A stretch of DNA of 64,000 nucleotides from Shigella virus Moo19, in sequence record MZ358387; one strand, given 5' to 3'. The translations under genes were made by a program, and so were the position numbers. Under the pieces are notes generated by a model that saw only the letters and a program-made list of their open reading frames with translations, searched no databases and had not been told where the DNA came from. Below, one piece after another: positions 1-64,000 of this stretch. Numbering within the stretch: the first letter of the stretch is position 1; each line of letters begins with the position of its first letter.

Positions 1-215
1 TGATGGTGACGATGTGATTCTTGCTGTACCCCGCCCAGTGGCTAGTGGCGGGACCGATTAACTAAAGGGCTTTCCACCTCCTTACCCGTTTAGCTAAAGG
101 CTAATAACTACCACAGTCAGGGTTCCTCGGCTCCTTTGACTTAAGACTGCAATCTTAAGTTTAACGGTACATAAGTACCTAGAGGGATGAACTGACCCGA
201 TACTGAAGTCGGTCA

Positions 216-252
216 GGGGCATAGTCGAGAGGCTATGCCCCATTTCTTTTTA
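216..252 (+). terminator. Stem-loop (9-bp stem ggggcatag/ctatgcccc, 8-nt loop) followed by T-rich tract, just upstream of first ORF
   Basis: Inverted repeat read directly; atttcttttta follows. Confidence 0.4.
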
Positions 253-263
253 TAGGAGCTATC

Positions 264-674
264 ATGGACATCTACGGTCTTGATATAGAAACACAGACAC
301 AAAAGAAAGAAGCTGACCCATACGTGATAGGTTCAGCTCAGTTCTTCGCCACCATCTTTGGTAACAAACACGCTATCCTTCTCCCAGATTGTGAAGAATC
401 CCACGAACTAGTAGGTTGCTGGCTGTTAGACAACATCCCACTAACCACTCGTATCATGAAGCAAGGTGAGACTATCATCTACAATCTGGAAGACTATGGA
501 ATACAAGAGGATGGTCAGTACACATGGATGCCACCTACTTACTTTATTCCACTGCCTGACTGGGAACTCATAGCTTCTCACGACGTATTCAAAAGGCAGA
601 TTGCTATCTACTTCCGTCCACGCCCTACCTGGAGAAAGAATCCATATGCAAGTCCAATTAATCTGTCGCAGTGA
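264..674 (+). CDS. Hypothetical early protein, member A of tandem small-ORF paralog family (SHELVGCWLL motif)
   Basis: ORF track; aggag RBS at 255-259; shares H-E-(V/L/F)-x-G-x-L-L motif with downstream ORFs. Confidence 0.4.
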   Translation: MDIYGLDIETQTQKKEADPYVIGSAQFFATIFGNKHAILLPDCEESHELVGCWLLDNIPLTTRIMKQGETIIYNLEDYGIQEDGQYTWMPPTYFIPLPDWELIASHDVFKRQIAIYFRPRPTWRKNPYASPINLSQ

Positions 675-1011
675 TAAAGATTCTGATGTAGTAAACGCAT
701 TAGAAATTCCATTCGACTTCTTTAGTCATGAGCTACACCTGAGCCAAGTAATCCTGGTTCCCTCCCTTGAGCATTATCATGAAGTTCAGGGGCAACTGTT
801 AATCAATGGTGTGACTGCTAAAGTAATCTGCATTCTTCCACCATCCCAATATCAGCCACCAGTTGGAAGTGTTCCTTATGCACTAGTCACTGATGACTAC
901 GTTGCTAAGTGTGACCCACTGCCTAATGTTGGTAAGTACAACGATACTTTAAATCTTACTTATTATTTCGAGAAGAAAGATGCAGCTACAACTAACGAGG
1001 TTCATGAGTAA
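646..1011 (+). CDS. Hypothetical early protein, paralog family member B (YHEVQGQLLINGVTAKV)
   Basis: ORF track 601-1011; first in-frame ATG beyond most of the overlap with upstream ORF is 646. Confidence 0.4.
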   Translation: MQVQLICRSDKDSDVVNALEIPFDFFSHELHLSQVILVPSLEHYHEVQGQLLINGVTAKVICILPPSQYQPPVGSVPYALVTDDYVAKCDPLPNVGKYNDTLNLTYYFEKKDAATTNEVHE

Positions 1012-1288
1012 CCCTCATAACTTATCTCTAGTGCACCCGGACGCAGAACCTTATCTATTAAGTGACGTTGGTTATGTACTCAGCGGTGAGTCCAAAGTCG
1101 TTATGCTTACCAGTGAGTCAGCTAACCTATTCCTCGTTGAGTGCATGATGCGGGGTGTCAATGCTGATATCACCCTCAAGGAACCAGGTGAGAAAGTATA
1201 TGGTGGCCTGCTCTGCTACTTAATACATAGTCCGCATGAGTATCCTGACTACGATAATGATGGTTATGTCTGGATAAGGAGGCCGTAA
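1004..1288 (+). CDS. Hypothetical early protein, paralog family member C (ends WIRRP)
   Basis: ORF track 980-1288; ATG 1004 overlaps upstream stop (ATGAGTAA). Confidence 0.45.
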   Translation: MSNPHNLSLVHPDAEPYLLSDVGYVLSGESKVVMLTSESANLFLVECMMRGVNADITLKEPGEKVYGGLLCYLIHSPHEYPDYDNDGYVWIRRP

Positions 1289-1563
1289 TGTTTGCCTATT
1301 TTGTACGCTCTACTTACGATGCCTACCACGGTATGCTATCCATCAAGTTAGAAGTAGGGCAACACTGGCCTACTTTTGAACCAGGAACAGCAGCTATTTG
1401 GGTTCATCCTGACATAGACTTTCATGAAGTACAGGGTGACCTGTTACTTCGGGGTAAGACAGCTAAGCTGATGGAATGTCCTCCGAACTATCGAATAAAA
1501 GAGAGTGGCATATTCATCCTGGCTCATAGTTACAGTAATGCACTGGAGTTACTGCGTCCATGA
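1288..1563 (+). CDS. Hypothetical early protein, paralog family member D (FHEVQGDLLLRGKTAKL, ends LLRP)
   Basis: ORF track; start overlaps upstream stop (TAATG). Confidence 0.5.
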   Translation: MFAYFVRSTYDAYHGMLSIKLEVGQHWPTFEPGTAAIWVHPDIDFHEVQGDLLLRGKTAKLMECPPNYRIKESGIFILAHSYSNALELLRP

Positions 1564-1922
1564 ATCTCTTCCTAATACCCCCTATGTCCTGTAATCCGCT
1601 TAAGCTGGTGGGCGAACAACCTACCTGGGATAGACTTGGCGTAACTAAAGAGACTGTCCTGTATGAACCAAGTGAAGAAGCACACGAGTTCATTGGTCAC
1701 TGTCTCATGATAAGTAGTGAAATACAGTTCAAGTCTCTTGCTGAACCAGTAGAAGTAAGGGAACAGGATAAGGTTTATGTAATAGGGCATCACTATCCTG
1801 ATGTATGCACCACCTTACAGGGCAGGCTTATCAGGCTTACTGATGAGAGTACCTGCATCCAGTGTACCTGCTATCACCCCTGCCCTTCTTCAAAGAAGGT
1901 TATCTACCCACTGGATATCTAA
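1560..1922 (+). CDS. Hypothetical early protein, paralog family member E (AHEFIGHCLM), Cys-rich C-terminus
   Basis: ORF track; ATGA overlap with upstream gene. Confidence 0.45.
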   Translation: MNLFLIPPMSCNPLKLVGEQPTWDRLGVTKETVLYEPSEEAHEFIGHCLMISSEIQFKSLAEPVEVREQDKVYVIGHHYPDVCTTLQGRLIRLTDESTCIQCTCYHPCPSSKKVIYPLDI

Positions 1923-2434: not shown

Positions 2435-2480
2435 GAGGTATATAATTACCCTCTATCTAATATTTTTGCATGTCAAAATG

Positions 2481-2593
2481 GTGATAGCTACTTGTGATAG
2501 CTGTGGTGTGGCAGGGGCTACACCCTTACACGTTAACTACCCCCCCGGTATGTTGACTCATGGGTGTACTACCCTACCCCACCTTACACGTTA
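2481..2593. repeat. Intergenic direct repeats: gtgatagct x2 (2481, 2494) and ccttacacgtta x2 (2524, 2582), plus repeated ctaccc runs
   Basis: Read directly from sequence. Confidence 0.6.
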
Positions 2594-2595
2594 CA

Positions 2596-2608
2596 CATGC
2601 TCCGCATG
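2596..2608 (+). promoter_or_regulatory. Tri-loop hairpin catgc-TCC-gcatg (bottom strand GC-GGA-GC); candidate N4-type vRNAP early promoter hairpin
   Basis: Perfect 5-bp stem, 3-nt loop; same core as hairpins at 3584 and 7442; upstream of ORF 2652. Confidence 0.35.
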
Positions 2609-2651
2609 GTATGGACATGTCGTCCTTATCATTAACTATTGGAGCTATACA

Positions 2652-2972
2652 ATGACTACTACTGCTAACGTACGTATGACTGCTGGAACTTTACTGGGTA
2701 CTGTAAATGAAGCAGCTACTACTATTGCTGATACCTTTGGTACTGCAACTAAAGCTGTTGGTATGCTGAACTCATATGTCACTACTATGAGTGAGAAACA
2801 ACGTATTCGTACTAAATTGGAAATGCATACATTTACCAATAAATTAGCTGAAGAAACAGCTATGCAAGATACTATCCGTAAGAAAGCTATCGTAGAATTC
2901 TGCAAAGATGAAAAGAATGCTGAACTCTATAAAGCATCTTACGATGATGTAATGGCACTGTTATCTAAATAG
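2652..2972 (+). CDS. Hypothetical protein (106 aa)
   Basis: ORF track frame 2382-2972; ATG 2652 has ggag RBS 8 nt upstream; upstream part of track ORF is repeat-rich intergenic DNA. Confidence 0.4.
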   Translation: MTTTANVRMTAGTLLGTVNEAATTIADTFGTATKAVGMLNSYVTTMSEKQRIRTKLEMHTFTNKLAEETAMQDTIRKKAIVEFCKDEKNAELYKASYDDVMALLSK

Positions 2973-3013: not shown

Positions 3014-3032
3014 ATTAGATAGTCAATCTAAT
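3014..3032. promoter_or_regulatory. Palindrome attagat-agtca-atctaat containing 14-mer ttagatagtcaatc (second copy at 3529-3542)
   Basis: 7-bp inverted repeat read directly; lies just after a terminator and upstream of ORF 3063. Confidence 0.4.
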
Positions 3033-3528: not shown

Positions 3529-3547
3529 TTAGATAGTCAATCAAAAG
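3529..3547. promoter_or_regulatory. Second copy of 14-mer ttagatagtcaatc in an imperfect palindrome
   Basis: Identical 14-mer to 3015-3028. Confidence 0.4.
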
Positions 3548-3583: not shown

Positions 3584-3600
3584 AAGACGCTCCGCGTCTT
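3584..3600 (+). promoter_or_regulatory. Tri-loop hairpin aagacgc-TCC-gcgtctt (7-bp stem); candidate vRNAP early promoter hairpin
   Basis: Perfect inverted repeat; GC-TCC-GC core shared with 2596 and 7442. Confidence 0.35.
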
Positions 3601-3705
3601 AAGGATGTATGAGTGCATCCAATCCTGTATGAAATCTTAGTCCTTTGTTTGGGTATGTTCACCGACGAGCGTACCCATAAATCACATTTATCTGGAGAGT
3701 ATAAA

Positions 3706-4089
3706 ATGTCTATTAAAACTTTTGGTCAAACTTTCGGTTCTGCTGTTGCTAACAAACCTGCTGCAACTGAACGTCCTAAAGCTAAATTCTGGCTGAACGT
3801 TGGCTATACAGCTAACGAAGGCACAGAAGAAGCTAAGTTCATCTCACTGCCTACTGGTATTCCACTGGATACTCAGGAGCATGTAAGCACTAAGTCCAGC
3901 AATGCTGACTTCCGTGCTATGCGTTGTGCTCAGAACGACCTGCTTGACCAGCTTCTGGCATTTGCAGAAGGTCTGGAACCAGGTGAAGAAGGTGTCATTC
4001 AACTTCAGGTTCAACTTCGTCGAGTCAAAGAAGAAGAAGCTGACATCCCAGCAGACGAGAATAAATATGCTCGTAAGCTGACTTTCTAA
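3706..4089 (+). CDS. Hypothetical early protein (127 aa)
   Basis: ORF track frame 3613-4089; ATG 3706 with ggagag RBS; followed by strong terminator. Confidence 0.5.
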
Positions 4090-6787: not shown

Positions 6788-7167
6788 AAGAAATATTCGT
6801 ATTCGGTTCTAATCTGGCTGGTGTACACGGTGCTGGTGCAGCTAAGACTGCATATAAGAAGCACGGTGCTCGTTGGGGTATGGGCGTAGGCCATTATGGT
6901 TGCAGCTATGCAATTCCAACTAAAGACCAGAACATCAAAACAATGGAGTTGGTTGATATCGCTGTATTTGTATCTGCCTTCATCCTGTATGCAGCAGCAC
7001 ACCCAGAGTGGGACTTCAAAGTAACACGAGTAGGTTGTGGGCTGGCTGGCCTGTCTGATAAAGACATGGCATTCATGTTCTTACCTGCAACAGGTAATGT
7101 CATGTTTGATGAAGCATGGAAACCTTATTTAGGTGATACCTATAACTACTGGGGTACATTCGAATGA
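6784..7167 (+). CDS. Gly-rich Rossmann-like motif protein (FVFGSNLAGVHGAGAAKTA...GCGLAGL); possible nucleotide-binding (SLOG/macro-like?)
   Basis: Motif only; family assignment uncertain. Confidence 0.35.
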   Translation: MKEIFVFGSNLAGVHGAGAAKTAYKKHGARWGMGVGHYGCSYAIPTKDQNIKTMELVDIAVFVSAFILYAAAHPEWDFKVTRVGCGLAGLSDKDMAFMFLPATGNVMFDEAWKPYLGDTYNYWGTFE

Positions 7168-7436
7168 CCTATGAAGAATTATGGGCTGCTCAAGTAAGAA
7201 GTAAGGCGAGAGCCTTTGCTCATGTCTACAGCACATTGCAGCATCTTATTAAAAGCAGAACCAAAGCTGGACATATACATGGTTACTACAAAGAAGATTG
7301 TATTCCCGATGGTGACTACCTATGGGATAAAAGAATCCGTCACGAGAGTGACATTATAAAAGTGAATATTGCTATTCATTCATACCCACCAAGGGGTAAT
7401 CGCTACCTATCTATTCACTTTTATACAAAGCGTTAG
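7164..7436 (+). CDS. Hypothetical protein (90 aa)
   Basis: ORF track. Confidence 0.4.
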   Translation: MTYEELWAAQVRSKARAFAHVYSTLQHLIKSRTKAGHIHGYYKEDCIPDGDYLWDKRIRHESDIIKVNIAIHSYPPRGNRYLSIHFYTKR

Positions 7437-7441: not shown

Positions 7442-7460
7442 AGCTGCTCCGCAGCTTTTG
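7442..7460 (+). promoter_or_regulatory. Tri-loop hairpin agctgc-TCC-gcagct followed by TTTT; candidate vRNAP promoter hairpin or short terminator, 30 nt upstream of RNAP II genes
   Basis: Perfect 6-bp stem, TCC loop; same GC-TCC-GC core as 2596 and 3584. Confidence 0.35.
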
Positions 7461-7488: not shown

Positions 7489-8307
7489 ATGTACTCATCT
7501 ATTGAACATCAGAAGCAACTGGAAACTCTGTTTAACAAGAATCAACTAATTCCTCGTATGAGGAAAGAGTTCGAGGACTCCGAAGAAATCCAATTCACTA
7601 AGTATTTTGAGCATATTGGCATCGACCCCAAACTGGGTATTGATGCAATGGTGCAAATTGCTCTGCATAAACGTGCTGACATTCCTACTATGGTTGGCTC
7701 ACTCATGAGTCACAGTCAGGATGCTCAGTACATAGCAGACACTCTGCTTAAGATGGCAGAGCACGACTGCTTTGACTTCGACCCAAGTATCGATAAGTTC
7801 ATCGTCATCTATGAAATCAGTGATGATGTACAACTGGAACTGGAAGCATTCCAGTATCCACTGCCTATCGTCAGTGAACCGAGAGAGGTTAAAGATAACC
7901 GTGGCTCAGGTTACTGGAATACCAAAGGCAGTATCATCCTCAAGAAGAACCACCATGAAATGGATGTGTGTCTCGACCACATTAACCGTATGAACAATCA
8001 ACGACTCAGCATCAACTGGGACGTTGCCAAGTTCGTCAAAAACTCATGGGCTAACCTGGATAAACCTAAAGAAGGGGAATCCCGTCAGGACTTTCAGAAG
8101 CGTGTACGTGCATTCGAGAAATACGACCGTACAGCAAAAGACGTTATGGAACTGGTGACTAAAGAAGGTAACAACTTCTCACTTGACCATAAGTATGACA
8201 AGCGTGGACGCACCTACTCACAGGGCTACCACATTAACTATCAAGGTACTAGCTGGAATAAAGCTGTTATCGAGTTCGCTGATAAGGAGTTGGTAAACGA
8301 TGAGTAG
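7489..8307 (+). CDS. Phage RNA polymerase II small subunit (N4 gp15-like)
   Basis: 272 aa; lies upstream of a T7-like RNAP C-terminal-half homolog; N4-like organisation; strong RBS aggag. Confidence 0.55.
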   Translation: MYSSIEHQKQLETLFNKNQLIPRMRKEFEDSEEIQFTKYFEHIGIDPKLGIDAMVQIALHKRADIPTMVGSLMSHSQDAQYIADTLLKMAEHDCFDFDPSIDKFIVIYEISDDVQLELEAFQYPLPIVSEPREVKDNRGSGYWNTKGSIILKKNHHEMDVCLDHINRMNNQRLSINWDVAKFVKNSWANLDKPKEGESRQDFQKRVRAFEKYDRTAKDVMELVTKEGNNFSLDHKYDKRGRTYSQGYHINYQGTSWNKAVIEFADKELVNDE

Positions 8308-8587
8308 GAAAGAATTTAAAGCTATTGCTCAAACCAGTGGTGGTATGGGCACATTAGCACTAGGAGAAGACGGTACAGTACTGTACACGGCTTACGACGT
8401 ATTATCTGGCAAAACAGTAACAGTATGTCTGTTCTTTGATGTAAATACTTACATGTCACTGGAGAATGCTTTCTCAGATTTCAGCAATGTTATGCGTAAT
8501 CGTGACCAGAAAGCTGACTTAACTCCGGCTGACAAAGACTTCCAGGCAATCCTCAATGACCTGAAGAAACCAGGCAAACTTCATTAA
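8300..8587 (+). CDS. Hypothetical protein between the two RNAP II subunit genes
   Basis: ORF track. Confidence 0.4.
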   Translation: MSRKEFKAIAQTSGGMGTLALGEDGTVLYTAYDVLSGKTVTVCLFFDVNTYMSLENAFSDFSNVMRNRDQKADLTPADKDFQAILNDLKKPGKLH

Positions 8588-9911: not shown

Positions 9912-10733
9912 ATGCCTGAGTTAAAAGTTGCTTTTAACAAAGACACCTATGTAGCTACCGTACTGGATGCCAGTGGTAGCGTTCCGAGTGGTTCTGTGAA
10001 CGTAGGTACTTTCTTCCATCCTGATGAGACTTACCCTGATAGTTATGTTATCTATCATGGTGTTCGTGAACTCCTGTATAAGCGTTCTGAAGTTGACCCG
10101 GCACAACCAGGCTTCTGGCCTGAGAACATTACCAACATGCAAGCTGTTACCATCGATAACAAGGCTACTGCACGTCTGGTACTGAATACCTCCCTACCTC
10201 GTGTAGTATCTACCATCGAAGGTGGTAAGGTTACTCTGTCTGTTGTTGCTCTGGGTGGTAAGGCTCCTCTTAAATACAAGTGGGAGTTCCGTGCACCTAA
10301 TGCTTCAACCTGGACTGCTGTATCTGGGCAGACTACTGCTAATCTGGTTCTGGATAATATCGATGCTGATAAAGCAGGTGAGTATAAAGTCACCGTTACC
10401 GATGCTGCCGGAACCAGTGTAGATAGTACTGCTCTGGTAGCTGTGGGTGCTTATCCACCACCAGCACTGACGGGCATTAAGGCTACGCCTACTTCCCTGT
10501 CTCTGTCTGTAGCTACTGACGCTGCTGGTAAAACTGTAGCTCTGTCTGCTATCCCGACTGATGCTGAACTGGGTACATTGTCTATTAAGACTGCTCCAGA
10601 TTCTGCTCGTGCTACTGCTACTATTTCTGGTTCTACTCTGACTGTTAAACCAGTGGCTGCTGGTGCTGCAACTTCTGTTGTAGTAACCAACGGTAAAGTT
10701 GATGTGACTATCACTATCAACGTTGCAGCATAA
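9912..10733 (+). CDS. Ig-like domain protein; probable capsid decoration protein (N4 gp17-like)
   Basis: Ig-like sequence features (GEYKVTVTDAAG; Big_2-like C-terminal repeats); position after RNAP II genes. Confidence 0.5.
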   Translation: MPELKVAFNKDTYVATVLDASGSVPSGSVNVGTFFHPDETYPDSYVIYHGVRELLYKRSEVDPAQPGFWPENITNMQAVTIDNKATARLVLNTSLPRVVSTIEGGKVTLSVVALGGKAPLKYKWEFRAPNASTWTAVSGQTTANLVLDNIDADKAGEYKVTVTDAAGTSVDSTALVAVGAYPPPALTGIKATPTSLSLSVATDAAGKTVALSAIPTDAELGTLSIKTAPDSARATATISGSTLTVKPVAAGAATSVVVTNGKVDVTITINVAA

Positions 10734-10799: not shown

Positions 10800-11114
10800 G
10801 TGACTAACAAATTACGTGTATGGCATATCCCGCAAGTGCCAATGAAAGCATTCTTTGTAGAATGCGATAGCATTCAGGAAGCTGTTAAAATTCGTAGTGC
10901 ACTGGCAGATTACGACTTGTTCCAGTATGAGAACAATGTCAAAGGTGATTACTGTAACGCCAGCGGTATTCATATCTGGGATGAAACTCTGTCTGACCAA
11001 GACCTCATCGATATGGAACTAGACGACCGTTGGGTTGACTGGTTCTATGAAGATGAAAATGAATACTTCGATGACCCAGAAGAATATCTGGAATGGCTTG
11101 CTACGCAATCCTGA
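10800..11114 (+). CDS. Small acidic protein (C-terminal half D/E/W/Y-rich); candidate DNA-mimic-type host-interference protein
   Basis: ORF track (GTG start with aggag RBS); composition; bracketed by terminators. Confidence 0.45.
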   Translation: MTNKLRVWHIPQVPMKAFFVECDSIQEAVKIRSALADYDLFQYENNVKGDYCNASGIHIWDETLSDQDLIDMELDDRWVDWFYEDENEYFDDPEEYLEWLATQS

Positions 11115-11161
11115 TTGCTTTTTTGGGTTGAGCAAACCCGTAACATTCCTTTGATATCCTT

Positions 11162-11190
11162 GACCTCCCTAAATGGGAGGTCTTTTTTTG
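11162..11190 (+). terminator. Rho-independent terminator (gacctccc-taaat-gggaggtc + T7)
   Basis: Read directly. Confidence 0.75.
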
Positions 11191-11216
11191 GTTGTTATCT
11201 ACTTTGGAAAATAAAT

Positions 11217-11417
11217 ATGAAATTTTCTGATTTACTCTGGGCAATTCTATTCCTGTTACTTACTGCCTTTATTTATGGGGTAGTACTGCCTAATGCAGTA
11301 TCTGCTTCAGATAGTATAAGTGTAGTAATTGGATTGATTGTTTCTATTATGTGGCCTGTTATAGCAGGTCGTGTTGTTTACCTTATCGTTAAGAAACGGA
11401 AGAAGAAACATGCGTAA
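11217..11417 (+). CDS. Small membrane protein (66 aa, two hydrophobic segments, basic C-terminus)
   Basis: ORF track frame 11115-11417; ATG 11217. Confidence 0.4.
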   Translation: MKFSDLLWAILFLLLTAFIYGVVLPNAVSASDSISVVIGLIVSIMWPVIAGRVVYLIVKKRKKKHA

Positions 11418-12246: not shown

Positions 12247-12252
12247 CAATAA

Positions 12253-12282
12253 AACCCCCAGACATTGCTGGGGGTTTTTACG
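12253..12282 (+). terminator. Rho-independent terminator (aaccccca-loop-tgggggtt + T tract)
   Basis: Read directly. Confidence 0.7.
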
Positions 12283-12295
12283 TCTGGAAAGTGTA

Positions 12296-14799: not shown

Positions 14800-14802
14800 A
14801 AC

Positions 14803-16481: not shown

Positions 16482-16490
16482 GGAATTACC

Positions 16491-49310: not shown

Positions 49311-49372
49311 AGCTTGTTTCCTGTTCAAACTTATATCTATAAGAGAACTCACTGTACATTAAGTGAGGGTAA

Positions 49373-51366: not shown

Positions 51367-51378
51367 GATGGTTTCCTA

Positions 51379-51834
51379 TTAGCGAGAAAGTTTATTCTTC
51401 TCAATGTACTCGTCAGCAGTAGATTGGTCACGGTTTTCTGCAACAGCACGACTACGTGCACGGTCTTCTAACGCAGTGTTATAAGACTTAATCGAGTTAT
51501 TAAGGTTCGTGTTAGTAATGTCCTTAGTAAAGGACAACTGGTCTTTGGCTAACTTGTTAGCCTGGAAACCACCATAGATATTAGCCAATGAACCAAGAGC
51601 ACCAAGTCCCAATTGGAAGGTTGGAATATTCAAGCCTAAGCCCTGAGATGCCCCACCAAACAGAGAGGTATTACCAGCAGAGGAAGTACCTGGGGAAGTG
51701 TAATCTCCCAAAGTCATGCCCGGCTGATAATTCATTGCTGGAGTATTAAAGTTTTGGTTCTGGTTGTTACCAGATAACCAGGACATCCCACCAGCATTTT
51801 GAGAGGGATTCCCTGTAAGGAAGTTCAAATCCAT
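51379..51834 (-). CDS. Virion protein (N4 gp52 position), Gly/Asn-rich
   Basis: ORF track; aggag RBS. Confidence 0.45.
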   Translation of the reverse strand: MDLNFLTGNPSQNAGGMSWLSGNNQNQNFNTPAMNYQPGMTLGDYTSPGTSSAGNTSLFGGASQGLGLNIPTFQLGLGALGSLANIYGGFQANKLAKDQLSFTKDITNTNLNNSIKSYNTALEDRARSRAVAENRDQSTADEYIEKNKLSR

Positions 51835-51847
51835 AAGGATTCTCCTG

Positions 51848-54490: not shown

Positions 54491-54495
54491 GTTAC

Positions 54496-55335
54496 TTACC
54501 CGTTAAGATTATTGTTACGTTTCAGGGTAGTCAGAACATCATCGATGCTGGAGTTAGTGAATCCATTAGGTGGAGTCAGACCTTCATCAATGGTTTTCTG
54601 AGTAATCCATGCGTCAGTAAACAGCTTGGATGCTTTAACTTCTGCATCACGCTGGTAGCTAGTAATCTGCTGAGTATACAGTTCTTTCTGTTTACCAATA
54701 GAACCAGAAACAGTAGCACCGTCAGACCGTTTATCCAGAGTCTGTGCACGTTGTGCTTCAGTCTGCTCGATAAGCAGTTTGAGTTGCTGAGGCAGAGTCT
54801 GTTCTACATTGAACAATGCAGCACAGTAAGTCTCAGATTCAGTAGAGAGTTTGAGCTTGGTAAGAGCATATTCACTCTTAGCATTCAGTGCCTGGAACTT
54901 AGCCAGCACGTACTGAGCTTTAGAAGTAGCCAATGCAACACGAGCACTAACAGCCTGAATCTGTGCCATAGCAGCAGCCCAGTAAGCCTGGTCACGACCT
55001 AACAGATACTGAGTGGCATTGCCCATACAGGTCTCTACAATAGCAATATATGCTTTGGTGTATTCACCACCAGTAATACGACCTTCCTTGAACTCCTGCT
55101 TAAGGTGAGCAGCAGCAGAAGCCATCAGTGCATCGAATGTACCGGAACCACCAACAACACGGGTAGTCAGGTCTTCATTAGTAAGTCGGGTTACTTCTGC
55201 AAAGATAGGGGAACCGTCCCCACCTGGGATATCCCATTCAGGACCGGACATATCAATATCGGGTAGGGCAAAGTCCTCGCCCTCAGTTAATGCTAACAAC
55301 AGTCGGTTAGCTTCTACCTCTGCACCACATGACAT
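54496..55335 (-). CDS. Virion protein (N4 gp54 position)
   Basis: ORF track; ATG 55335 has gagga RBS (track start 55350 lacks one). Confidence 0.45.
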
Positions 55336-55351
55336 GATGTATTTCCTCATG

Positions 55352-55391
55352 GTTCAAAAAGAAACGGCTCACGGAATTAACCAGTGAGCCG
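55352..55391 (-). terminator. Putative terminator hairpin (cggctcac ... gtgagccg; U-run on - strand)
   Basis: 8-bp inverted repeat read directly, long loop. Confidence 0.35.
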
Positions 55392-55412
55392 TGTTATCGG
55401 TCAGCTTACAAC

Positions 55413-56051
55413 TTAATCGTTGTTTGTGCTACCAGCAGCAGTCTGGGCAGCAGCTAACTTATCCAGGTCTTCCTGGGTCAGTGGTGGGAGTTCTTCAATT
55501 GCAAACTCACGCACCCATGCCTGTTCAATCTTTTTACCCTTATTCGATACACGAATGTTCAGGAATTTACGATTCTTCAGGAACTCATAAATACAGTAAG
55601 GGATATGGTATCCATTATCAGTTGCTTCACCGAATGGAACGAACTTACGAATCGTACCCATGTATTCGTTAGCAACAGTGATAATCTCACCCGGTAGGTC
55701 TTTCTTCTTAGGGTCGAGATTCTGGATACGAACACGAATCAGACGGGTTTGTTCCAGACGAATGCGTTGACGCATTTGTGCTTCAGTCTCTTTGACTGGA
55801 GCTTTTTTAGTATCTTCGAGTGGATTCACTTCCGGTTCTTCCTGTTCTGGTTCAGATGCTTTACCTTCCTGTGCATCTGCAATTTTCTGACGCAACTTCT
55901 CAAGACTAATGTTGTTTGAGAATGAAATGTTCATCAGCTTGGCACGTTGCTTCAGTACTGTCAGTTCATCTGGCATTGGTACATCATCAACAGTGTCGTT
56001 GCTCTGAATGACTTCTTCTTGTTCAGGAGTCGGCTTGTCGTTAATGCTCAT
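55413..56051 (-). CDS. Hypothetical late protein (212 aa)
   Basis: ORF track; aggaa RBS. Confidence 0.45.
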   Translation of the reverse strand: MSINDKPTPEQEEVIQSNDTVDDVPMPDELTVLKQRAKLMNISFSNNISLEKLRQKIADAQEGKASEPEQEEPEVNPLEDTKKAPVKETEAQMRQRIRLEQTRLIRVRIQNLDPKKKDLPGEIITVANEYMGTIRKFVPFGEATDNGYHIPYCIYEFLKNRKFLNIRVSNKGKKIEQAWVREFAIEELPPLTQEDLDKLAAAQTAAGSTNND

Positions 56052-56067
56052 GTTAATAATTCCTGTG

Positions 56068-56098
56068 GTTCATAAATAAGGGGGAGGTTCCCCTCCCC
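56068..56098 (-). terminator. Terminator downstream of major capsid gene (ggggagg-ttcc-cctcccc; U-rich on - strand)
   Basis: Read directly. Confidence 0.5.
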
Positions 56099-56111
56099 GT
56101 TAGGTTAGCTA

Positions 56112-57317
56112 TTACAGAGGTGCAACAGCTTTCATTACGGCAATACGTTCTGGACGTTTAACCAGGATACCGTAGTACCACTTGATGCTGGAGAAGCCAG
56201 TCTCACCGTAAGGGTCATTACGGTCAGCAGTTTCTTTACCAGGCATCTTGGTCATAACATTGAACTTAACAGACTTACCGTCAGTCTGGAAGCCAATAGT
56301 GGTGAAGGAATCATCACCAACAACCAGTACTGGGTAGACATCGTAGTGCTCAGTACCGTTAACGGTAGAAGTACGATAACCAGGGTTAGCATCAGTAGCT
56401 GCTGCACCTGCACCTGCCCAGTGGAGCATCTCTGGAACCTGGATGATACGGAACTTATCGATAGTACCGATTTCACCGTTCATCAGAGTACCAGCATCAC
56501 CGTAGTGCTGAATCTCGATGAATGCTTTGTTACCGAACAGGTCTTTCATTGCCTTCAGGTCAGGAACCAGTTCAGAACCAACGTACATTACACGAGTACC
56601 ACCAATCACTTTGGTATCAACCAGACGGGAACCAGTGATGATAGTAGTTTGAGTAGGAGTACGGTTATCGGTCAGGATGGCATCCAGACGCATCAGGTTT
56701 TTATAGGTGATAACAGAAGGGGTAGAACCTTCACCAGTGATGGTTGCATCAGAGGTAGCAGCGCCTGCATACAGTACTGTACCAGCAGCAGCCAGAAGGT
56801 CTTTCTGGAGAACAGCTTCGGTAATCTGTACTGCACCGTTCATCAGTTCACGGGACAGGTGTTCTTTCAGTTGGTCATCAGAGTCGAAGTCCAGAGATTC
56901 CTGGGTGAACTCGTAGAAGAAACCGAACTTATGGATGGAACCTTCACGAGACAGACGGGTGAAGCCAACACGGTTAACACGACCACCGTTCTCGGTCAGC
57001 AGAGGCAGCTTGGAGGTAATAGTACCGATGTCTTTACTTGAACCATACAGGTTACCGTTTACGATGTGTGCACCGTTAGCATCGATACCCTGGTCGTTAA
57101 TGTTACGGTCATCCAGCAGAGGAACATATTCGTAAACCTTAATGGTTTTACCCATGTTCTTCGGCATGTTAGTAACGGAAGCCAGGGGCATAAAGTATTG
57201 GTCTTTACGAGCCTGGATAATAGCTTTCTTGAGCCAGTAGAAGGTATTCATCTGGTCAGAGCCAGCACCATCGATACTGGATTTCTGACCGTCAATTGGA
57301 GCGTTATAGTTCAACAT
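56112..57317 (-). CDS. Major capsid protein (N4 gp56 position, 401 aa)
   Basis: Size and synteny (scaffold-like acidic protein upstream, portal further upstream); terminator immediately downstream; no motif verification. Confidence 0.5.
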
Positions 57318-57329
57318 AATAATTTCCTG

Positions 57330-58565
57330 TTAAAGTCCACCGGGATTCGGCAGTTTAGCGAACTCTTCATCACTCATAGCGAGTGGATTAATGAAACGTT
57401 CTACTTTTTTAGGTGCAGCTCGACTTGGCGAAGCAGCACTTGCTTGTTCAGAGTGGGTCACCGTAGGTTTCGGTTTAACCACTCGTGTTGCTACTGCTGC
57501 ACGTTGAGCAGTAACTTCCGGCTTAGGTTCAACAGGTTTACCAGCCAGATGGTTAAATGCACCTTGTTTAGCAAGAGCATCACCAACATAGTTATAAGCC
57601 TGAATAAACGGTGTTCCGGCTGGAATCTGACCTAACATCTGAAGACGGTTAATCTCATTCGAGATAATGTCATAAATGCCATTTTCACGTTGAGACTGAA
57701 TCGTCTGGATTAAGCCACGATTCTCAAACAGTGCATTCTTACTGGCTTCATCCCATGTCTGAGAAATTACACCTAAAGTAGCTTGTCCTTCTGGGGTAGA
57801 CTTTAAATCGTCCAGTTCGGTTGCAAATGCTGCTTCAGTGTCAGATACACGGTGATTGCCTTTCTGGTAATTGATTTCCTCATCCATATTAATATCGAGA
57901 GGGTCAGTACCAGAATCTTTAAGCAACTTACGAATGGCTTCTGGGTTCTTCTTATCTAAGTCAATTAGATAAGACAGCTTGTCCTCATCCATCAGTCCGT
58001 TGTTTTCTAACATCAGCATCACCTTACGGTAAGGCTGTAATGCTTGCATCTTACGAGTGTAGTTAGCACCCATCTGCATCAGGCTAATGGCCTCCTCCGG
58101 TGATTGGGGAGTAATCATTTTACCGTTAGCTTTAAATGGAGCCATCAAACGTTCGTAACCAGCTTTATAGTCGAAGTCGGTTGGCAGACCTTCAGACTGT
58201 TTATCCTCTTCTGTCTTACTCTGGCCGGAGTCTTCAGTAGCAGGAGCAGCTTTAGTAATCGGCTTACCGTTACTATCAACTTCATTGGCGTCAACTTTAT
58301 CATCAACTTTATCAGAAGTTAAATTTTTTGCTGCATCTTCATCTACTTCAGACTGCTCAGAGTTATCTTCTTCTGGTTCGTCCGTTGTGGTTGTTTCTTC
58401 AGATTGGGTAGTAACTACTTCTTCTTGTTCAGTAGTAACGTCTTCTTCTGGGTTGTTCTGAGTGTCTTGCTCAACTTCCTCTGAAGGAGGAACAGACATA
58501 TTCAGAATCTCATCATCCGACATTGCGAGAATGTCGGAAGCCTGTTTAGTGGCTTCCGTAGTCAT
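57330..58565 (-). CDS. Acidic protein, possible scaffolding protein
   Basis: Very acidic N-terminal 140 aa; located between portal-side genes and capsid gene. Confidence 0.4.
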   Translation of the reverse strand: MTTEATKQASDILAMSDDEILNMSVPPSEEVEQDTQNNPEEDVTTEQEEVVTTQSEETTTTDEPEEDNSEQSEVDEDAAKNLTSDKVDDKVDANEVDSNGKPITKAAPATEDSGQSKTEEDKQSEGLPTDFDYKAGYERLMAPFKANGKMITPQSPEEAISLMQMGANYTRKMQALQPYRKVMLMLENNGLMDEDKLSYLIDLDKKNPEAIRKLLKDSGTDPLDINMDEEINYQKGNHRVSDTEAAFATELDDLKSTPEGQATLGVISQTWDEASKNALFENRGLIQTIQSQRENGIYDIISNEINRLQMLGQIPAGTPFIQAYNYVGDALAKQGAFNHLAGKPVEPKPEVTAQRAAVATRVVKPKPTVTHSEQASAASPSRAAPKKVERFINPLAMSDEEFAKLPNPGGL

Positions 58566-58583
58566 GGGGAGTATCTCCGGTTA

Positions 58584-58946
58584 TTAGTCTTGAATTACTT
58601 CTTCGTCTTCATCCGGTTCTGCACGAACCGTATCCAGCATTTCCTGAACACGTTCGATAGTACCGATAGCCTGGTCACCCAGACGCAAGGAGATATCCAG
58701 CCAACGACGGATATGACCAGCAGCTTGTGCCATTGCCAGAGCATCAGCACGTTGTTCTGCTGTCAGCAGAGGGTCGCCTGATTCCTGAACGTAGCGAGCA
58801 CATTCTTTCTCACAGAACTGTTCCAGAATTACTTTACGGAACAGACGGTTTTCACACAGTTTGCGAACGTCTTCTGCACGGGCAACAATTTCTTTGTTGC
58901 CAGCCAGTTGATATTCCAGTCCTGCGATTTCTTGTTCTTTACTCAT
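58584..58946 (-). CDS. Hypothetical late protein (120 aa)
   Basis: ORF track. Confidence 0.4.
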   Translation of the reverse strand: MSKEQEIAGLEYQLAGNKEIVARAEDVRKLCENRLFRKVILEQFCEKECARYVQESGDPLLTAEQRADALAMAQAAGHIRRWLDISLRLGDQAIGTIERVQEMLDTVRAEPDEDEEVIQD

Positions 58947-58960: not shown

Positions 58961-61243
58961 TTAAAGGTTCATGCCGGGACTCAATGCTGGGTCACGACTT
59001 GGGTCAAAATACTGGGAACCAATGGAAAGAGATGGGTCTTGGGGTGCAAGAGCATCACGTTCTAATTCATTGTTCACCTGGTTGTTACCATCGGTAATTG
59101 CATTATATCCGATAGCAGCAGATATGTTAGGGGAAGTTTCGCCTTCTTTTACTGGTTGTGTCAATGCTTTAGTTACTTGAAGGTTCTGGTTACCCTGAGA
59201 TTGTGCTTTTTGTTTTTCCATTTCACGAGCATGTTTAGTGCCGGATTCCTGTTCCAGATAATCCAGATTAGTCATATCTTTCTTAGCATCTTCTGCACGA
59301 ACCTTAGCTTCGTTCAATGCAATCTCAGATTGCAGCTTTTGGTTTTCCAGTTGAGCTTTCTGAATAGCCAGTTGCTTAAGTTGTTCTTCCATTGGGTCTG
59401 GTTCTGGTTTCCAGGTACGTAACTCGTGTGCCAGTTCAGGCATACGTTTAAGTTCTGCAATACGTGCAACCAGTTTAAGAGTAACTTGCTGGTCAACCGT
59501 GTTACCAATAGTCTGAACCATGAAGCCCAGGTCTTGGGATTTCTGGTTATCGACTTCAGCAGTGTTGATATCTACTTCAATATCAAAGTTGCCTTTCAGG
59601 TCTTCACGGTTAATAGTCACGTATTCCTCATTGGTAATACGAACGACTTCTGTCTCAGAAAGGAATACGGCATTCATTGCACAAATCTTTGTACCAATGT
59701 CAGCCATACCTTTTGCCAGACGACGAAGGATTGCCATCTCACGTTTAGAAGCTGCATCCAGTGCACCACGAATACCAGCAGCAACATCACCATAAGCTGA
59801 ACCAGTAACACCACCTGCAAATGCCTTTACCCCGGTAAGTGCTTCTGCTTCTTGGTTCTGCATCTGAGACATTACAATTGCAGACTGAGGTAACTCAGGG
59901 AATTTATGTTCGATAATTGCCTGAGAAGGATTACCCGTCTGGGGATTGTATTCATAGTCCAGACCATCTTCGAAACGACGACGGTTAAGAGTATCCAGCA
60001 TACCTTTAGGGTAAGCACGTTGACCATTGGCACTACGACCAAGTAAGTCAATCATGCCACGCATGGTAGCACCCAGGATTTTCTGGTTATCACCTAACAG
60101 TTCTGCATCTGCTTCGCCATACAATTCACGTTTACGTGGCATATATGGAACCAGTACGAATGGTAGCTTACCATCTGGGTATGGATTCTCTTCCATACGG
60201 ATAAGAGTTGTACCAATCCAGGTAGCTACAATTGGCTTAAGTTCACCGTCACCGTTAGTATCCCAGAATCCCCAGTATTCATATGCAATGACACGTTTAC
60301 GCATAGCATCACGGAACTGGAAGTCACCAGGAGTTTTACTCTCATGGTCTGGGTCAGTAAGTGGGGAAGAACTTTCCCAATCAATTTTATCCAGATTGTG
60401 ATAACGGTCTGGGGTCTTTAACAAATCTGCTTTACAGGTTTCGAATGAGACAACTGCAAACAGTGCTCGGTCGAGGTCACCATTACAGGACGGGTCGATA
60501 ACAACGTTGTTTGGGTCGAGCATTTCAACCGTTGGCCTGTTAACCACAGCCTTCTCGACTTCAACTTCCGTAGTACCCGTCTGGATAGCATAAGTAGCTT
60601 CACCCGTTTCATTGAAATAGTTAACAGCTTCCTTAACGTCATCTGCTACTTGTTCCTCATATCCACGGGGGTTTTGTGCCTGAAGGTCTAAGGCTTGTTG
60701 CAGAATCTGAACTTGTTCTTCTGTTTCAACAGGGTACATCTGGAAGACAGGGGCGTCCTGTTTAACCTTAACTACCTTGCGTTCCCAACCAACACGAGCA
60801 ATGCCAGTACCGTCATCGCAGACAGAGTGAACGTAATCATCCACCAGCTTCACACGGTTAAGCTGAGTACGGAACTGGTAATTAAGTACAAGTTCGTTCT
60901 GACGTGCAGCTTGTTCATCTTCCCAGGTAACCGGGGTAAGTTTGAATAACTTAGGGGATGACAGAAACGGCTCAGACAATGGGGCATAACGCCACTCTGC
61001 CTGACGTCGAACCAGTTTAGGCTGGACCTGGGAACGGCCTTTTACCTTTGGGGGCTTAGCCGAACCTTCTGCTTTCATGAGGTCATTCCATTTCTGGATT
61101 TCTTTCATGATTGCATCATGGGCTGGTTTACCTGCTTCAAGGTCAGCCTTCAGTGTCTGAATACTTGGCTCTTTCTTCCAGTTAGTCAGCTTATCTGATT
61201 GCCCTGGGTCTGGAAGAGGAGTCATAGAATCTTGATGTTCCAT
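58961..61243 (-). CDS. Portal protein (N4 gp59 position, 760 aa)
   Basis: Size and synteny only. Confidence 0.5.
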
Positions 61244-61251: not shown

Positions 61252-61752
61252 CTATTGTAAAAGTTTCCGGTCGGCCTTGATTTGGTTCCCCAACTCAATC
61301 AATTGGTTGTCACGGAGTCTAACAGTTGCCCTGAGTTCTTCAACCACTCGTCTGCCTTGTTCAAGACTGGAGTCGAGTTCGGCTGCATGGCTTGCAAGAC
61401 TTCTGCACTCAAAGGTTCCGGCTTCGGCTTGACGTTTATATACGTCGGCTCTTTTGCTTGATTGCTGCATCCGGCTGTCGTAATCACTGCTAAGGCGAGC
61501 AAGCTCGCCTGCGTAATTACTCTCAGCCGTCTGCAATCTGGTAGTGAGCATACCGACTTCATAGCTGTGTTGTCTGTTAAGGACATCGTATTCACCCTTA
61601 AGTTTATTGTAGGCTTTCTGGTCTTCTACTTTCTGAGCATCCCACTTGGCCTGAACTTTATCCTGACCATTACTGGAACCCCAAAAGTAAATGGTGGCTC
61701 CCAAAGCCACCACTACCAGATAAGGCCAACCTTTAGAGATTAGCGTCATCAT
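61252..61752 (-). CDS. i-spanin (Rz-like): N-terminal TM plus periplasmic coiled-coil
   Basis: ATG 61752 with ggagg RBS; TM segment [22 protein letters not shown]; adjacent to endolysin. Confidence 0.5.
61299..61586 (-). CDS. o-spanin (Rz1-like) lipoprotein embedded in the i-spanin gene in another frame
   Basis: Lipobox-like ITTAGC after hydrophobic signal; ATG 61586 with aaggg RBS; embedded architecture. Confidence 0.45.
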   Translation of the reverse strand: MSLTDNTAMKSVCSLPDCRRLRVITQASLLALAVITTAGCSNQAKEPTYINVKPKPEPLSAEVLQAMQPNSTPVLNKADEWLKNSGQLLDSVTTN

Positions 61753-62368
61753 TACATGCCTCCAGAGGCACATTACCAATACGGTTTGATATCCAGCCAT
61801 ACGTATAGTCAGGCATGTTTAACGAGGTGTAGTGATTAAGTTGTTTACCATCCAATAGCTTAATCATAGTCTTACAGGCTTCTACTTTGCCTCGTTTTTT
61901 CTGGAGTGCCCTATACGAGTTAATGGTTGCTGTACCAACTTTACCATCAACTTGTATTTTAGGGTAGTCTTTGCCATTACGACTAACGTCATTCAAAGAC
62001 TCTTGAAGCCAACGTGCTGGACGTGGTGTCCCAGTGTTTACTCCAGCATCCACCAGCTTGTGGGTCACAGCAGGACTAATAGAAGCGAACTCAATAAAGT
62101 TTGGCTTGATAATGTAGTCATCAACATAAACTTCAGCAGCCATCTCTTTAGTAAGTCCTTTCATAGTCCCATCCCATCCGTATTTCTTTGCTAAGACTTC
62201 CTTGTGGGACTGGGCTACTTTCTTAGTTATCCCGTGATTAGTTTCCCCTCCTGGGTCTTTGGGGTCATTTACATAACCACCTTCCAGCATAAAAACGGAA
62301 CCAAGAATGGCAGCAACTACTGCTCCCACTGCACCACCCCTGGTTGCTAGTTTTTTATTTATTGCCAT
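61733..62368 (-). CDS. GH108-family N-acetylmuramidase endolysin with N-terminal SAR-like hydrophobic segment
   Basis: Signature EGGYVNDPKDPGGETNHGIT; N-terminal GGAVGAVVAAILGSVFML; gaggagg RBS. Confidence 0.75.
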   Translation of the reverse strand: MAINKKLATRGGAVGAVVAAILGSVFMLEGGYVNDPKDPGGETNHGITKKVAQSHKEVLAKKYGWDGTMKGLTKEMAAEVYVDDYIIKPNFIEFASISPAVTHKLVDAGVNTGTPRPARWLQESLNDVSRNGKDYPKIQVDGKVGTATINSYRALQKKRGKVEACKTMIKLLDGKQLNHYTSLNMPDYTYGWISNRIGNVPLEACNDDANL

Positions 62369-62621
62369 GATAGTCCTCCTCTTTAGGCTTTAAACGAATA
62401 AGCCTGCCAACGATGTTCAAGGCAAATAAGCCAATGGCAACACCTGAACCATGTGGAATCTGGTCAAGCAGATGTCTTGGCAAACCTGAGAACATTGGCT
62501 GGATTATATCGACGGCAGAGAAGAGAATCAGACCAATAGTACTAATCTGGATAGAAGCCCATTTCCAGGCTCGTTTCCAGTTAGGTACTAGTTCAACCCT
62601 TTTGGTTAACCTGCGAACCAT
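62355..62621 (-). CDS. Two-TM holin (pinholin-like)
   Basis: Two hydrophobic segments; overlaps endolysin start; aaggag RBS. Confidence 0.5.
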   Translation of the reverse strand: MVRRLTKRVELVPNWKRAWKWASIQISTIGLILFSAVDIIQPMFSGLPRHLLDQIPHGSGVAIGLFALNIVGRLIRLKPKEEDYHGNK

Positions 62622-62935
62622 GCGAAAATCTCCTTACGTGCTGCAACCAACAGACTTAAGATTGCACCTGCTGCTGCCCATACCCACTTACCAAAGATTC
62701 CTGCACCAACTACCTTGTGCTTAATGGTAATGAACTCTTCGATGGTAGGCTCATTTTTAGCAAGACTCTCTTCAACATTCTTAAGTCTGTTACTAACTTC
62801 AGCAACTGAGTCCTTAAGATTGGTGATGGAGTTTTCCAGCTTTGCTCGGTCATTCCTTTCACGTTCCTGGTTCTCGAACATGGTTTTAAATCGTTCCTCC
62901 AGTCGAGCCAGTAATACATCAGTGGGTTCAGACAT
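62606..62935 (-). CDS. Coiled-coil protein with C-terminal TM; possible holin/antiholin-type lysis regulator
   Basis: ORF track frame (ATG 62935); C-terminal hydrophobic GAGIFGKWVWAAAGAILSLLVAA. Confidence 0.35.
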   Translation of the reverse strand: MSEPTDVLLARLEERFKTMFENQERERNDRAKLENSITNLKDSVAEVSNRLKNVEESLAKNEPTIEEFITIKHKVVGAGIFGKWVWAAAGAILSLLVAARKEIFAWFAG

Positions 62936-63031
62936 AATAATTTTCCACGTAGTAATAATATGCACCAGGAATAATACTTATAAACGCTAGCCTACGAAAG
63001 GAAAAAGCCCCCATTAAGGAGGCTTACTTTT

Positions 63032-64000
63032 TTAAAGCTGGGAGATGCTCCAGTATGCACTACGTGATTTTGTCAGTGGTGGTCTAGTGGTAAGTGGTTC
63101 GGTTGCCCGAATACGAGTACCTGCCGGAACTGCTGTCTGAATAGGATGAGCAATGTCCATCGTAATCGGAGCAGAGATGTTTGTAGCAGGTGTCTGATAA
63201 GGAGCCTTAGTAATATAAGTCTCAAGGTCAGCACCTCCAGCCCCAGCACCCGGAATTGTAATACGAGTACCTGGTGAGAACTGGCAAACGTACAACCATG
63301 CTGAACCCTTAGACGTACCATCTGGAGTCAGATTCTGGGTAATGGTTTTAGTCCCAACAGCAGCAGCTTTAATATCTGCTTCTTCGGTATCCGGGATAAA
63401 CACACCAGGGGAAGTAACTACGAATGGGCTGTTAACGTAAACGTCAGCAGCAACAAACTTAGTCTTATCCCTCATGTTGTCACGACCAGAGAGTGACGTG
63501 TTAGGAACCATCATGGAACGTTGAAGCTCCATAACAAACACCGTATCCCCATAGTTAAACTGACGACCAGTAGGGAAACGAGTACCATTCTGACCGTGGT
63601 CAGCTTCACCAGGGAAGTAGACACGACCAGCAGAACCAACAGGCACACCGTTAGAACCAATGAAGTTAGCGTATGGTACAGACGTAACGTTAGAACCAGT
63701 GATGCTCACCTCAGAGTAACGGCAACGTAACCAGCCCTGACTAATTGCAATACGGTCACCGTGGGTAGCGTTAACGTTAGTCATGTTCAGGACAGAACGT
63801 TGGAACGTAAACCAACCATCACCAGTAAAGCCATCAGCAGAAGAATACTGACCAACACAGTTAAATACCTGAGTCAGTACGTTGGACATGTTCAACTCAG
63901 ATGCTACACCGAACACAGTGAACTTGTAGGCATCAATGTTATCCAGTGTCACACGGTTATTGTGCTCAACCAGATTGCCGTCCAGACCAGCAGATACACC
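63032..64000 (-). CDS. Virion/tail structural protein, C-terminal part (gene continues beyond window edge)
   Basis: Open reading frame continues without stop to position 64000; Gly/Thr/Ser-rich beta-type composition. Confidence 0.4.
   Translation of the reverse strand, partial: GVSAGLDGNLVEHNNRVTLDNIDAYKFTVFGVASELNMSNVLTQVFNCVGQYSSADGFTGDGWFTFQRSVLNMTNVNATHGDRIAISQGWLRCRYSEVSITGSNVTSVPYANFIGSNGVPVGSAGRVYFPGEADHGQNGTRFPTGRQFNYGDTVFVMELQRSMMVPNTSLSGRDNMRDKTKFVAADVYVNSPFVVTSPGVFIPDTEEADIKAAAVGTKTITQNLTPDGTSKGSAWLYVCQFSPGTRITIPGAGAGGADLETYITKAPYQTPATNISAPITMDIAHPIQTAVPAGTRIRATEPLTTRPPLTKSRSAYWSISQL

Follow-up and report, generated by a model that had tools for sequence, protein, structure and literature searches.

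The 64,000-nucleotide stretch of DNA analysed in the present work, referred to throughout as the window, is almost certainly 64,000 of the 72,458 bp (88%) of the genome of Shigella virus Moo19, a lytic N4-like podophage for which a three-polymerase transcription programme can be proposed from what is known of coliphage N4. The phage has already been deposited, classified by the International Committee on Taxonomy of Viruses and described, including its structural characterization, in a recent paper (Sci Adv 2024, PMC11654681), and its N4-like organization is known biology. The value of the analysis lies in the frame that it provides for reading the window: the strand and temporal class of each gene, the physical terminus of the genome, and the division between core and accessory genes. 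The annotations that go beyond the discussion in the Moo19 paper are three hairpin promoters for the virion RNA polymerase (vRNAP), a decayed tRNA-Ile gene, what looks like an imm cassette with 16-nt repeats, and the colanidase-like end of gp81.

The identification of the phage comes from exact-sequence look-up of eight window proteins (the major capsid protein, portal, DNA polymerase, Sak4-like ATPase, dCTP deaminase, endolysin, ThyX and the small subunit of RNA polymerase II, or RNAP II), all of which, at 2,976 amino acids in sum, are identical and of the same length to Moo19 RefSeq proteins. No difference between the window and Moo19 was detected, identity being judged from these proteins, which include the 859-residue DNA polymerase and the 760-residue portal; the species criterion asks that genomes agree at 95% or more of their nucleotides, for which identical proteins serve here as a proxy. 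The NCBI taxonomy places Moo19 in the family Schitoviridae, subfamily Enquatrovirinae, genus Moovirus, species Moovirus moo. The published identity of 67.1% between the Moo19 vRNAP (gp67) and that of N4 (PMC11654681) was reproduced with the window protein (67.2%), which supports the identification. The same paper shows by cryo-electron microscopy and mass spectrometry that Moo19 has a podovirus virion which packages vRNAP, and it describes an Ig-like, Hoc-like decoration protein gp28 (structure published), the major capsid protein gp73, the portal gp76, a G7C gp66-like appendage of unclear function (gp81) and an esterase tailspike (gp82). The Moo19 gene numbering fits the window (gp28 decoration protein, gp60 Sak4-like ATPase, gp67 vRNAP, gp73 capsid protein, gp76 portal, gp78 endolysin), provided that the Moo19 record begins at, or close to, window position 1. 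The genes absent from the window, namely the N-terminal part of the tail gene gp81, the tailspike gp82, a gp67-like protein, the large terminase, gp69 and gp70, would sum to about 8.5 kb, in line with the 8,458 bp by which the window falls short. The earlier description of the window as an almost complete genome thus amounts to 88% of the length; the Schitoviridae-type gp68 large terminase and most tail genes lie outside the window, and its last gene runs off the edge.

At the nucleotide level, the phage is closer to the G7C-like phages than to N4. Megablast searches against GenBank phages matched 87–142 records, nearly all of them N4-like; the majority are G7C-group phages of Escherichia, Shigella and Klebsiella, about 78% identical to the window. 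In the phage collection no nucleotide match exceeded about 84% identity, on which evidence the phage would have passed for a new species, a reading given up once the exact protein matches pointed to Moo19. A scan of IMG/VR with rIIA gave no match closer than 64%. The closest phage in the collection is Escherichia phage Jgk1 (PV292302, an unverified and unannotated record), whose alignment takes in 88% of the window, with a mean identity of 79%. These matches, together with the many proteins that are nearer to G7C (Escherichia phage vB_EcoP_G7C) than to N4 and the presence of several small genes found only in G7C, could be explained if the window belonged to the G7C-like genus Gamaleyavirus and not to a separate N4-like lineage. 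This placement was rejected as very improbable, because similarity to the window (identity multiplied by aligned fraction, taken in one direction over the window) is only 0.61 for G7C, the one Gamaleyavirus member compared in this way, which is below the 70% genus threshold. The value for Jgk1 is 0.69 and that for N4, the type phage of Enquatrovirus, is 0.51; that G7C and N4 both fall below the threshold agrees with the separate genus Moovirus, in which Moo19, the source of the identical proteins, is placed. The window also contains N4-type genes that are all absent from G7C, these being gp13, gp18 (P22 gp17-like), gp19, gp20 (SPFH/Band-7), gp22 (HNH), gp27 and gp48, and its vRNAP has the N4 length (3,493 residues against 3,500 in N4) and lacks three insertions that bring the G7C protein to 3,748 residues, about 250 more.

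The genes of the window stand in the N4 order. A blastp comparison of all open reading frames (ORFs) in the window with the translated annotated genes of N4 (NC_008720) and G7C (NC_015933) found 54 N4 homologues, collinear and on the same strands as in N4: gp71, gp1, 2, 6, 9, 11–20, 22, 24–46 and 48 on the plus strand, and gp50–63 on the minus strand. The N4-like order asserted by the first-pass annotation is thus confirmed, and RNAP II, the giant RNA polymerase and the GH108 endolysin, the proteins on which it had staked the assignment, all match N4 strongly. The convergent early/middle and late arms that it described are also present: plus-strand ORFs span 264–38599, minus-strand ORFs run from 38871 to the end of the window, the GC skew switches sign close to 38 kb, and the arms meet at the following element, which is situated after the last gene of the plus strand and before the giant ORF's stop codon.

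38841–38864, both strands: bidirectional intrinsic terminator, with a 10-bp GC-rich stem and T-runs on either side

The layout nevertheless comprises three transcription blocks and not two, with a short right-end block and the early/middle arm on the plus strand and the late arm on the minus strand; the two arms stand as described, and the third block is added because the window starts about 2.5 kb ahead of the genome's left end. The gene functions that had been named from the sequence were all recovered by Pfam, NCBIfam or PHROGs searches or by N4/G7C homology, with the exception of a MoxR assignment considered below.

The first polymerase of the proposed transcription programme would be the giant one:

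38871–49352, minus strand: giant virion RNA polymerase of 3,493 amino acids (gp50 homologue; Moo19 gp67), 67.2% identical to N4

The alignment with N4 gp50 is full length (3,522 aligned columns, E = 0), and the protein matches four N4 domains in Pfam (N4_RNAP_helical, vRNAP_dom, vRNAP_dom_2 and vRNAP_plug), so that the window has the giant vRNAP of about 3,500 residues with an N4 polymerase core that is expected of the Schitoviridae. Individual residues were located with the mini-vRNAP numbering, for which we assumed an offset of 997; N4 has the expected residue at all 14 positions examined, which validates the offset. Of these 14 residues, which serve promoter reading or catalysis, the window protein keeps 13 in the alignment with N4 gp50. 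They include D559, D951, R666, K670 and Y678, the catalytic residues of the N4 literature, and eight of the promoter-contact residues K114, R119, W129, K267, K268, K849, K850, D901 and R904 named in PMC4496689. The exception is K267, which is replaced by T in the window (residue 1264) and by N in G7C, with K268 kept; K267 belongs to the pair of lysines with which the N4 mini-vRNAP melts the promoter stem at its base.

The promoters read by this enzyme in N4 consist of a GC-rich heptamer centred at −11 and flanked by inverted repeats, with specificity determinants at −11 (A/G), −10 (G), −8 (G) and +1 (C) and four A's near the start site (PMC4496689). That description was turned into the search pattern NNNGC-TYC-GCNNN, written as it reads on the non-template (plus) strand. 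Without its stem, the heptamer GCTYCGC is no more frequent in the window than chance predicts (8 matches against 6.7 expected); only the stemmed version is informative. Exactly three GCTCCGC hairpins with at least three further stem pairs were found, at 2599, 3589 and 7446 and all on the plus strand; shuffled sequence yields 0.17 on average and never more than 2. They lie 24–53 nt upstream of the gp1, gp2 and gp15 homologues, and the three hairpins of N4 itself, at 93, 562 and 4551, precede the same genes.

2596–2608, plus strand: P1-like vRNAP hairpin promoter, catGCTCCGCatg, before the gp1 homologue (at 93 in N4 and 92 in G7C)
3584–3600, plus strand: P2-like vRNAP hairpin promoter, aagacGCTCCGCgtctt, before the gp2 homologue (at 562 in N4)
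7442–7456, plus strand: P3-like vRNAP hairpin promoter, agctGCTCCGCagct, before the RNAP II genes (at 4551 in N4, before gp15)

The window thus carries hairpins of the N4 type, as anticipated, near the left genome end where members of the Schitoviridae have them, and by analogy with N4 they would be used as promoters in vivo. Both the promoter determinants and the part of vRNAP that reads them are conserved in these comparisons. The window P1 and the G7C hairpins have only three stem pairs beyond the GC pair, compared with up to five in N4.

The genes that follow the three hairpins are homologues of those that serve middle transcription in N4:

2652–2972, plus strand: gp1 homologue, 71% identical to N4 gp1 (E = 1e-52); PF26891 Phage_N4_Gp1 in relatives
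3613–4089, plus strand: gp2 homologue, 70% identical to N4 gp2 (E = 1e-82)
7489–8307, plus strand: RNAP II small subunit (gp15 homologue), 68% identical to N4 (E = 3e-144) and 79% to G7C; identical to YP_010657747.1
8637–9854, plus strand: RNAP II large subunit (gp16 homologue), 66% identical to N4 (E = 0); RNA_pol PF00940, 4.9e-14

In N4, gp1 is a cofactor of middle transcription and gp2 is a cofactor that binds single-stranded DNA and recruits RNAP II. By homology, then, the window encodes the heterodimeric T7-like RNA polymerase (gp15 and gp16), with the cofactors gp1 and gp2, that characterizes the Schitoviridae.

The genome's left end, near which the early promoters lie, does not coincide with the start of the window. 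The features concerned are:

264–1922, plus strand: right-end small genes, homologues of gp71, gp71.1 and gp71.2 together with a 102-residue ORF (980–1288), found by blastp
2458–2908, plus strand: collapsed terminal-repeat region, in continuous alignment with G7C 71707–72158

The gp71, gp71.1 and gp71.2 homologues match G7C with blastp E-values of 3e-26, 7e-16 and 1e-16, and the DNA of window 95–1682 matches G7C 70540–71509, where the right-end genes gp71 to gp71.2 are found. The alignment with G7C 71707–72158 begins in unique sequence of the right end and passes into the terminal repeat of G7C (1,160 bp), and window position 2508/2509 is the counterpart of position 1 in Jgk1 and G7C and of position 5 in N4. 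In all three of these independently deposited references the P1 hairpin lies 91–93 nt from the deposited left end, a distance which again places the left end at about window 2508. Four independent related contigs assembled from public read sets all carry the order TerL (minus), gp69 (minus), gp70 (plus), gp71-type genes (plus) and gp1 (plus) without interruption, with minus-strand genes of 530 and 229 amino acids just upstream of the point that matches the window start. These alignments indicate that the physical left end probably lies at about 2508/2509 and that the window crosses a collapsed terminal repeat. The first 2.5 kb or so therefore hold right-end genes, and, as the chief correction to the first-pass annotation, the assignment of the first ORFs (264–1922) to the early class must be given up, since they are homologues of the right-end genes.

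A transcription programme can be proposed because the three-polymerase programme of N4 is established (PMC4496689) and every one of its components found here is conserved. The virion-packaged polymerase of 3,493 residues would enter the cell with the DNA and start transcription at the three supercoil-extruded hairpin promoters near the left end, which precede gp1, gp2 and the RNAP II genes. The products gp1 and gp2 would then act with the two-subunit T7-like RNAP II to transcribe the plus-strand middle genes, which encode nucleotide metabolism, rIIA and rIIB, the helicase, Pol A, exonuclease, primase, single-stranded DNA-binding protein (SSB) and tRNAs. After replication, the host RNA polymerase together with the phage SSB would transcribe the late arm on the minus strand (genes for vRNAP, virion proteins, capsid, portal and lysis), which would converge on the middle arm at the bidirectional terminator. 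Of what this account rests on, the identity, order and strand of the genes, the hairpins, the conserved vRNAP residues and the terminator are observed in the window.

Several points weigh against this account of the window as Moo19 DNA read by an N4-type programme. In the phage collection, from which the Moo19 record is absent, the best nucleotide match is Jgk1, at about 79%. Look-ups of encoding contigs returned no record for the gp51-like protein or the endolysin, nor for the last ORF, which is incomplete. The length of the terminal repeat is not readable from a collapsed assembly. The timing of each block, the polymerase that would serve it and the use of the promoters are carried over from N4. 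Finally, a de novo search of the plus-arm intergenic regions found no recurrent 8-mer and no shared middle-promoter motif, the frequent 6- and 7-mers there being ribosome-binding sites (TAGGAG) and terminator stems.

The minus-strand arm contains the N4-type structural core (gp56 capsid protein and gp59 portal) in collinear order, as in other Schitoviridae, followed by the lysis genes and the gene that is cut by the window edge:

49402–58946, minus strand: virion proteins like gp51, gp52, gp53, gp54, gp55, gp57 and gp58, together with the major capsid protein, found by blastp
56112–57317, minus strand: major capsid protein (gp56; Moo19 gp73), TIGR04387 capsid_maj_N4, 347 bits against a cut-off of 60
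58961–61243, minus strand: portal (gp59 homologue; Moo19 gp76), 71% identical to N4; PF23899 SU10_portal, 1.6e-148; identical to YP_010657798.1
61252–62965, minus strand: lysis cassette, comprising Rz with embedded Rz1 spanins, endolysin, holin and a gp63-like protein, found by blastp
61733–62368, minus strand: GH108 endolysin (Moo19 gp78, exact match), 72% identical to N4 (1.6e-105); Glyco_hydro_108 and PG_binding_3
63035–64000, minus strand: C-terminal 322 residues of a larger tail protein, with no in-frame upstream stop, cut by the window edge

By gene numbering, the last of these is Moo19 gp81, the G7C gp66-like appendage. The 322-residue fragment is about 44% identical to annotated colanidase or colanic acid-degrading tailspikes of unrelated phages such as Sortsne, Kc237 and IME279, and it matches Phi92 gp150 in the PDB (6E0V) at 1e-10 over its last 110 or so residues only; blastp found no match of the fragment to G7C gp66 or gp63.1. 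It is conceivable, though on balance doubtful, that gp81 adds to the gp82 esterase another enzyme that degrades glycans, namely a depolymerase of capsule or colanic acid, in which case gp81 and gp82 would form a two-enzyme adsorption device.

The comparison with individual relatives points to a shared backbone with mosaic accessory genes. G7C has the same backbone, with core enzymes 77–94% identical to those of the window, which also carries the G7C-type genes gp1.1, 1.2, 2.2, 2.3, 9.1, 9.2, 17.1, 17.2, Imm, 30.1, 32.1, 71.1 and 71.2, none of which is in N4. G7C differs in having no tRNAs, no gp18–22 block and six HNH genes compared with two in the window. N4 shares the gene order gp1–gp63 plus gp71, the three hairpins, the GH108 endolysin and a tRNA cluster at the same place, but its tRNA set (Asn, Ser, Thr, Pro) differs from that of the window, and its receptor-binding gene encodes the gp65 sheath, compared with the G7C-type tailspikes of Moo19. 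Jgk1 has tRNAs for Tyr, Asn, Pro, Gln and Ile, the same set in the same order as in the window, with the Ile gene intact; it differs in lacking the imm cassette, in having more hairpin promoters, including a duplicated P1, and in its early accessory region. The four related contigs are 88–91% identical to the window over 69–76% of the early 20 kb, and an identical RNAP II small subunit was located in 159 index blocks from public assemblies; Moovirus-like phages seem to be common in public read sets and to surface in assemblies of bacterial isolates.

One such occurrence bears on whether the sequence could be a prophage or a phage-like region of an enterobacterial chromosome, since the exact capsid protein is also recorded under Salmonella enterica whole-genome shotgun data (EBO1428187.1, WP_265323808.1; longest contig 74,785 bp). 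The Salmonella-labelled contigs are, however, as large as a whole phage genome, and the related contigs, all of 61–75 kb, are circularly permuted, with none seen to be flanked by chromosomal genes and attachment-site repeats. Across the 64 kb of the window there is no integrase, repressor or bacterial flanking gene. N4-like phages are established as strictly lytic, and a chromosomal origin was rejected as having only the slightest probability. The same verdict was reached on the proposal that N4-type and G7C-type accessory genes stand together because two phages grown in one culture were assembled into a chimeric sequence: mosaic gene content is what such an artefact would produce, but the composition is uniform over the window, the four contigs, derived independently from SRA data, have the same backbone, junction order, 95-residue ORF and gp18-like gene, and the phage was plaque-purified, with its virion proteins confirmed by mass spectrometry (PMC11654681). 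An origin in two phages is accordingly exceedingly unlikely.

The remaining plus-strand features belong to the early/middle arm:

9912–10733, plus strand: Ig-like, Hoc-like capsid decoration protein (gp17 homologue; Moo19 gp28), 59% identical to N4 gp17
10800–12646, plus strand: N4-type accessory block (N4 gp18, 19, 20 and 22), not in G7C, found by blastp and family searches
13744–15975, plus strand: AAA ATPase (gp24) and metallopeptidase-like/VWA-like protein (gp25), found by blastp and Pfam
15975–18992, plus strand: nucleotide-metabolism and accessory genes for dCTP deaminase, gp27, an Imm-like protein, proteins like gp28/29, and ThyX, found by blastp and Pfam (Thy1, DCD)
20023–24734, plus strand: rIIA-like and rIIB-like proteins, 40% and 48% identical to N4 and 52% and 67% to G7C
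25605–36968, plus strand: replication module, main enzymes 56–81% identical to N4; Pfam, NCBIfam
37485–37806, plus strand: tRNAs Tyr(GTA), Asn(GTT), Pro(TGG) and Gln(TTG), found by ARAGORN and confirmed by Rfam
37809–37873, plus strand: tRNA-Ile(GAT) remnant, Rfam 50 bits over model positions 8–63, missed by ARAGORN
38177–38599, plus strand: last plus-arm gene (gp48 homologue), found by blastp; Pfam Phage_gp49_66

The decoration protein matches Pfam Ig_3 at 3e-6, slightly under the gathering score. Of the MoxR/VWA pair of the first-pass annotation, the gp25-like protein has strong matches to DUF2201_N and the VWA-like DUF2201; its neighbour, the gp24-like protein, is supported only as a generic AAA ATPase (PF00004, E = 1e-5). 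A MoxR label would call for AAA_3 or AAA_5 above threshold beside a VWA protein, and AAA_5 scores 17.3 bits against a cut-off of 22, with no NCBIfam match. More generally, NCBIfam has no family for the ATPase, the VWA-like protein, the exonuclease, the primase, SSB, rIIB or the gp81 fragment, and the SSB and rIIB assignments, which have no family match, rest on N4/G7C homology; rIIA matches HATPase_c_3 in Pfam. The replication module comprises an SF1 Dda/RecD-like helicase (AAA_30, UvrD_C_2 and RecD2-like models), gp38, a family A DNA polymerase (DNA_pol_A), gp40, gp41 and an exonuclease with a weak PD-(D/E)XK match, followed by an HNH endonuclease, a primase (PriCT_1), the Sak4-like ATPase, SSB, gp46 and gp47.

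The accessory block encodes a P22 gp17-like superinfection exclusion protein, a small membrane protein, an SPFH/Band-7 lipoprotein and an HNH endonuclease. Three exclusion-type genes thus occur in one phage (plus strand, 10800–12246 and 16765–17025), of which the PF17420 and SPFH/Band-7 (gp20-like) genes are N4-type and the T4 Imm-like gene is G7C-type. This Imm-like superinfection-immunity gene (16765–17025) is flanked by a perfect 16-nt direct repeat, TTGTGGAAGTTCCTTC, at 16731 and 17055, and Jgk1 lacks exactly window 16747–17054 and has a single copy of TTGTGGAAGTTCCTTC in its place. The arrangement looks like a cassette gained or lost between short repeats, or else a duplicated regulatory site.

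The tRNA-Ile remnant, compared with the intact tRNA-Ile(GAT) of Jgk1, has lost the 3′ acceptor arm through a deletion of 6 nt and is diverged downstream, and it is a decaying tRNA-Ile gene.

Some smaller features concern gaps between the early and middle genes. The 13-mer TAGATAGTCAATC occurs twice on the plus strand (3016–3028 and 3530–3542), in both cases a short way downstream of a terminator-like hairpin in the early region; the two sites follow gp1 and gp1.2, the equivalent place in G7C carries the related TAGATAGTCAGTT, and the 13-mer may be a regulatory or promoter element. A 90-residue ORF (7164–7436, plus strand) occupies the gap before promoter P3, and one of 95 residues (8300–8587, plus strand) lies between the RNAP II subunit genes, at the same site in the four related contigs; G7C has an HNH endonuclease at this site and N4 only 48 nt. 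The HNH endonuclease at 31599–32114 (plus strand, 49% identical to G7C gp41.1) lies between the exonuclease and primase genes, while the G7C copy precedes the exonuclease, and the nearby gp41 homologue (region 30357–32114, plus strand) has 92 residues compared with 156 in G7C and 202 in N4. The placement of the endonuclease and the shortness of gp41 suggest movement of a homing endonuclease and local gene erosion.

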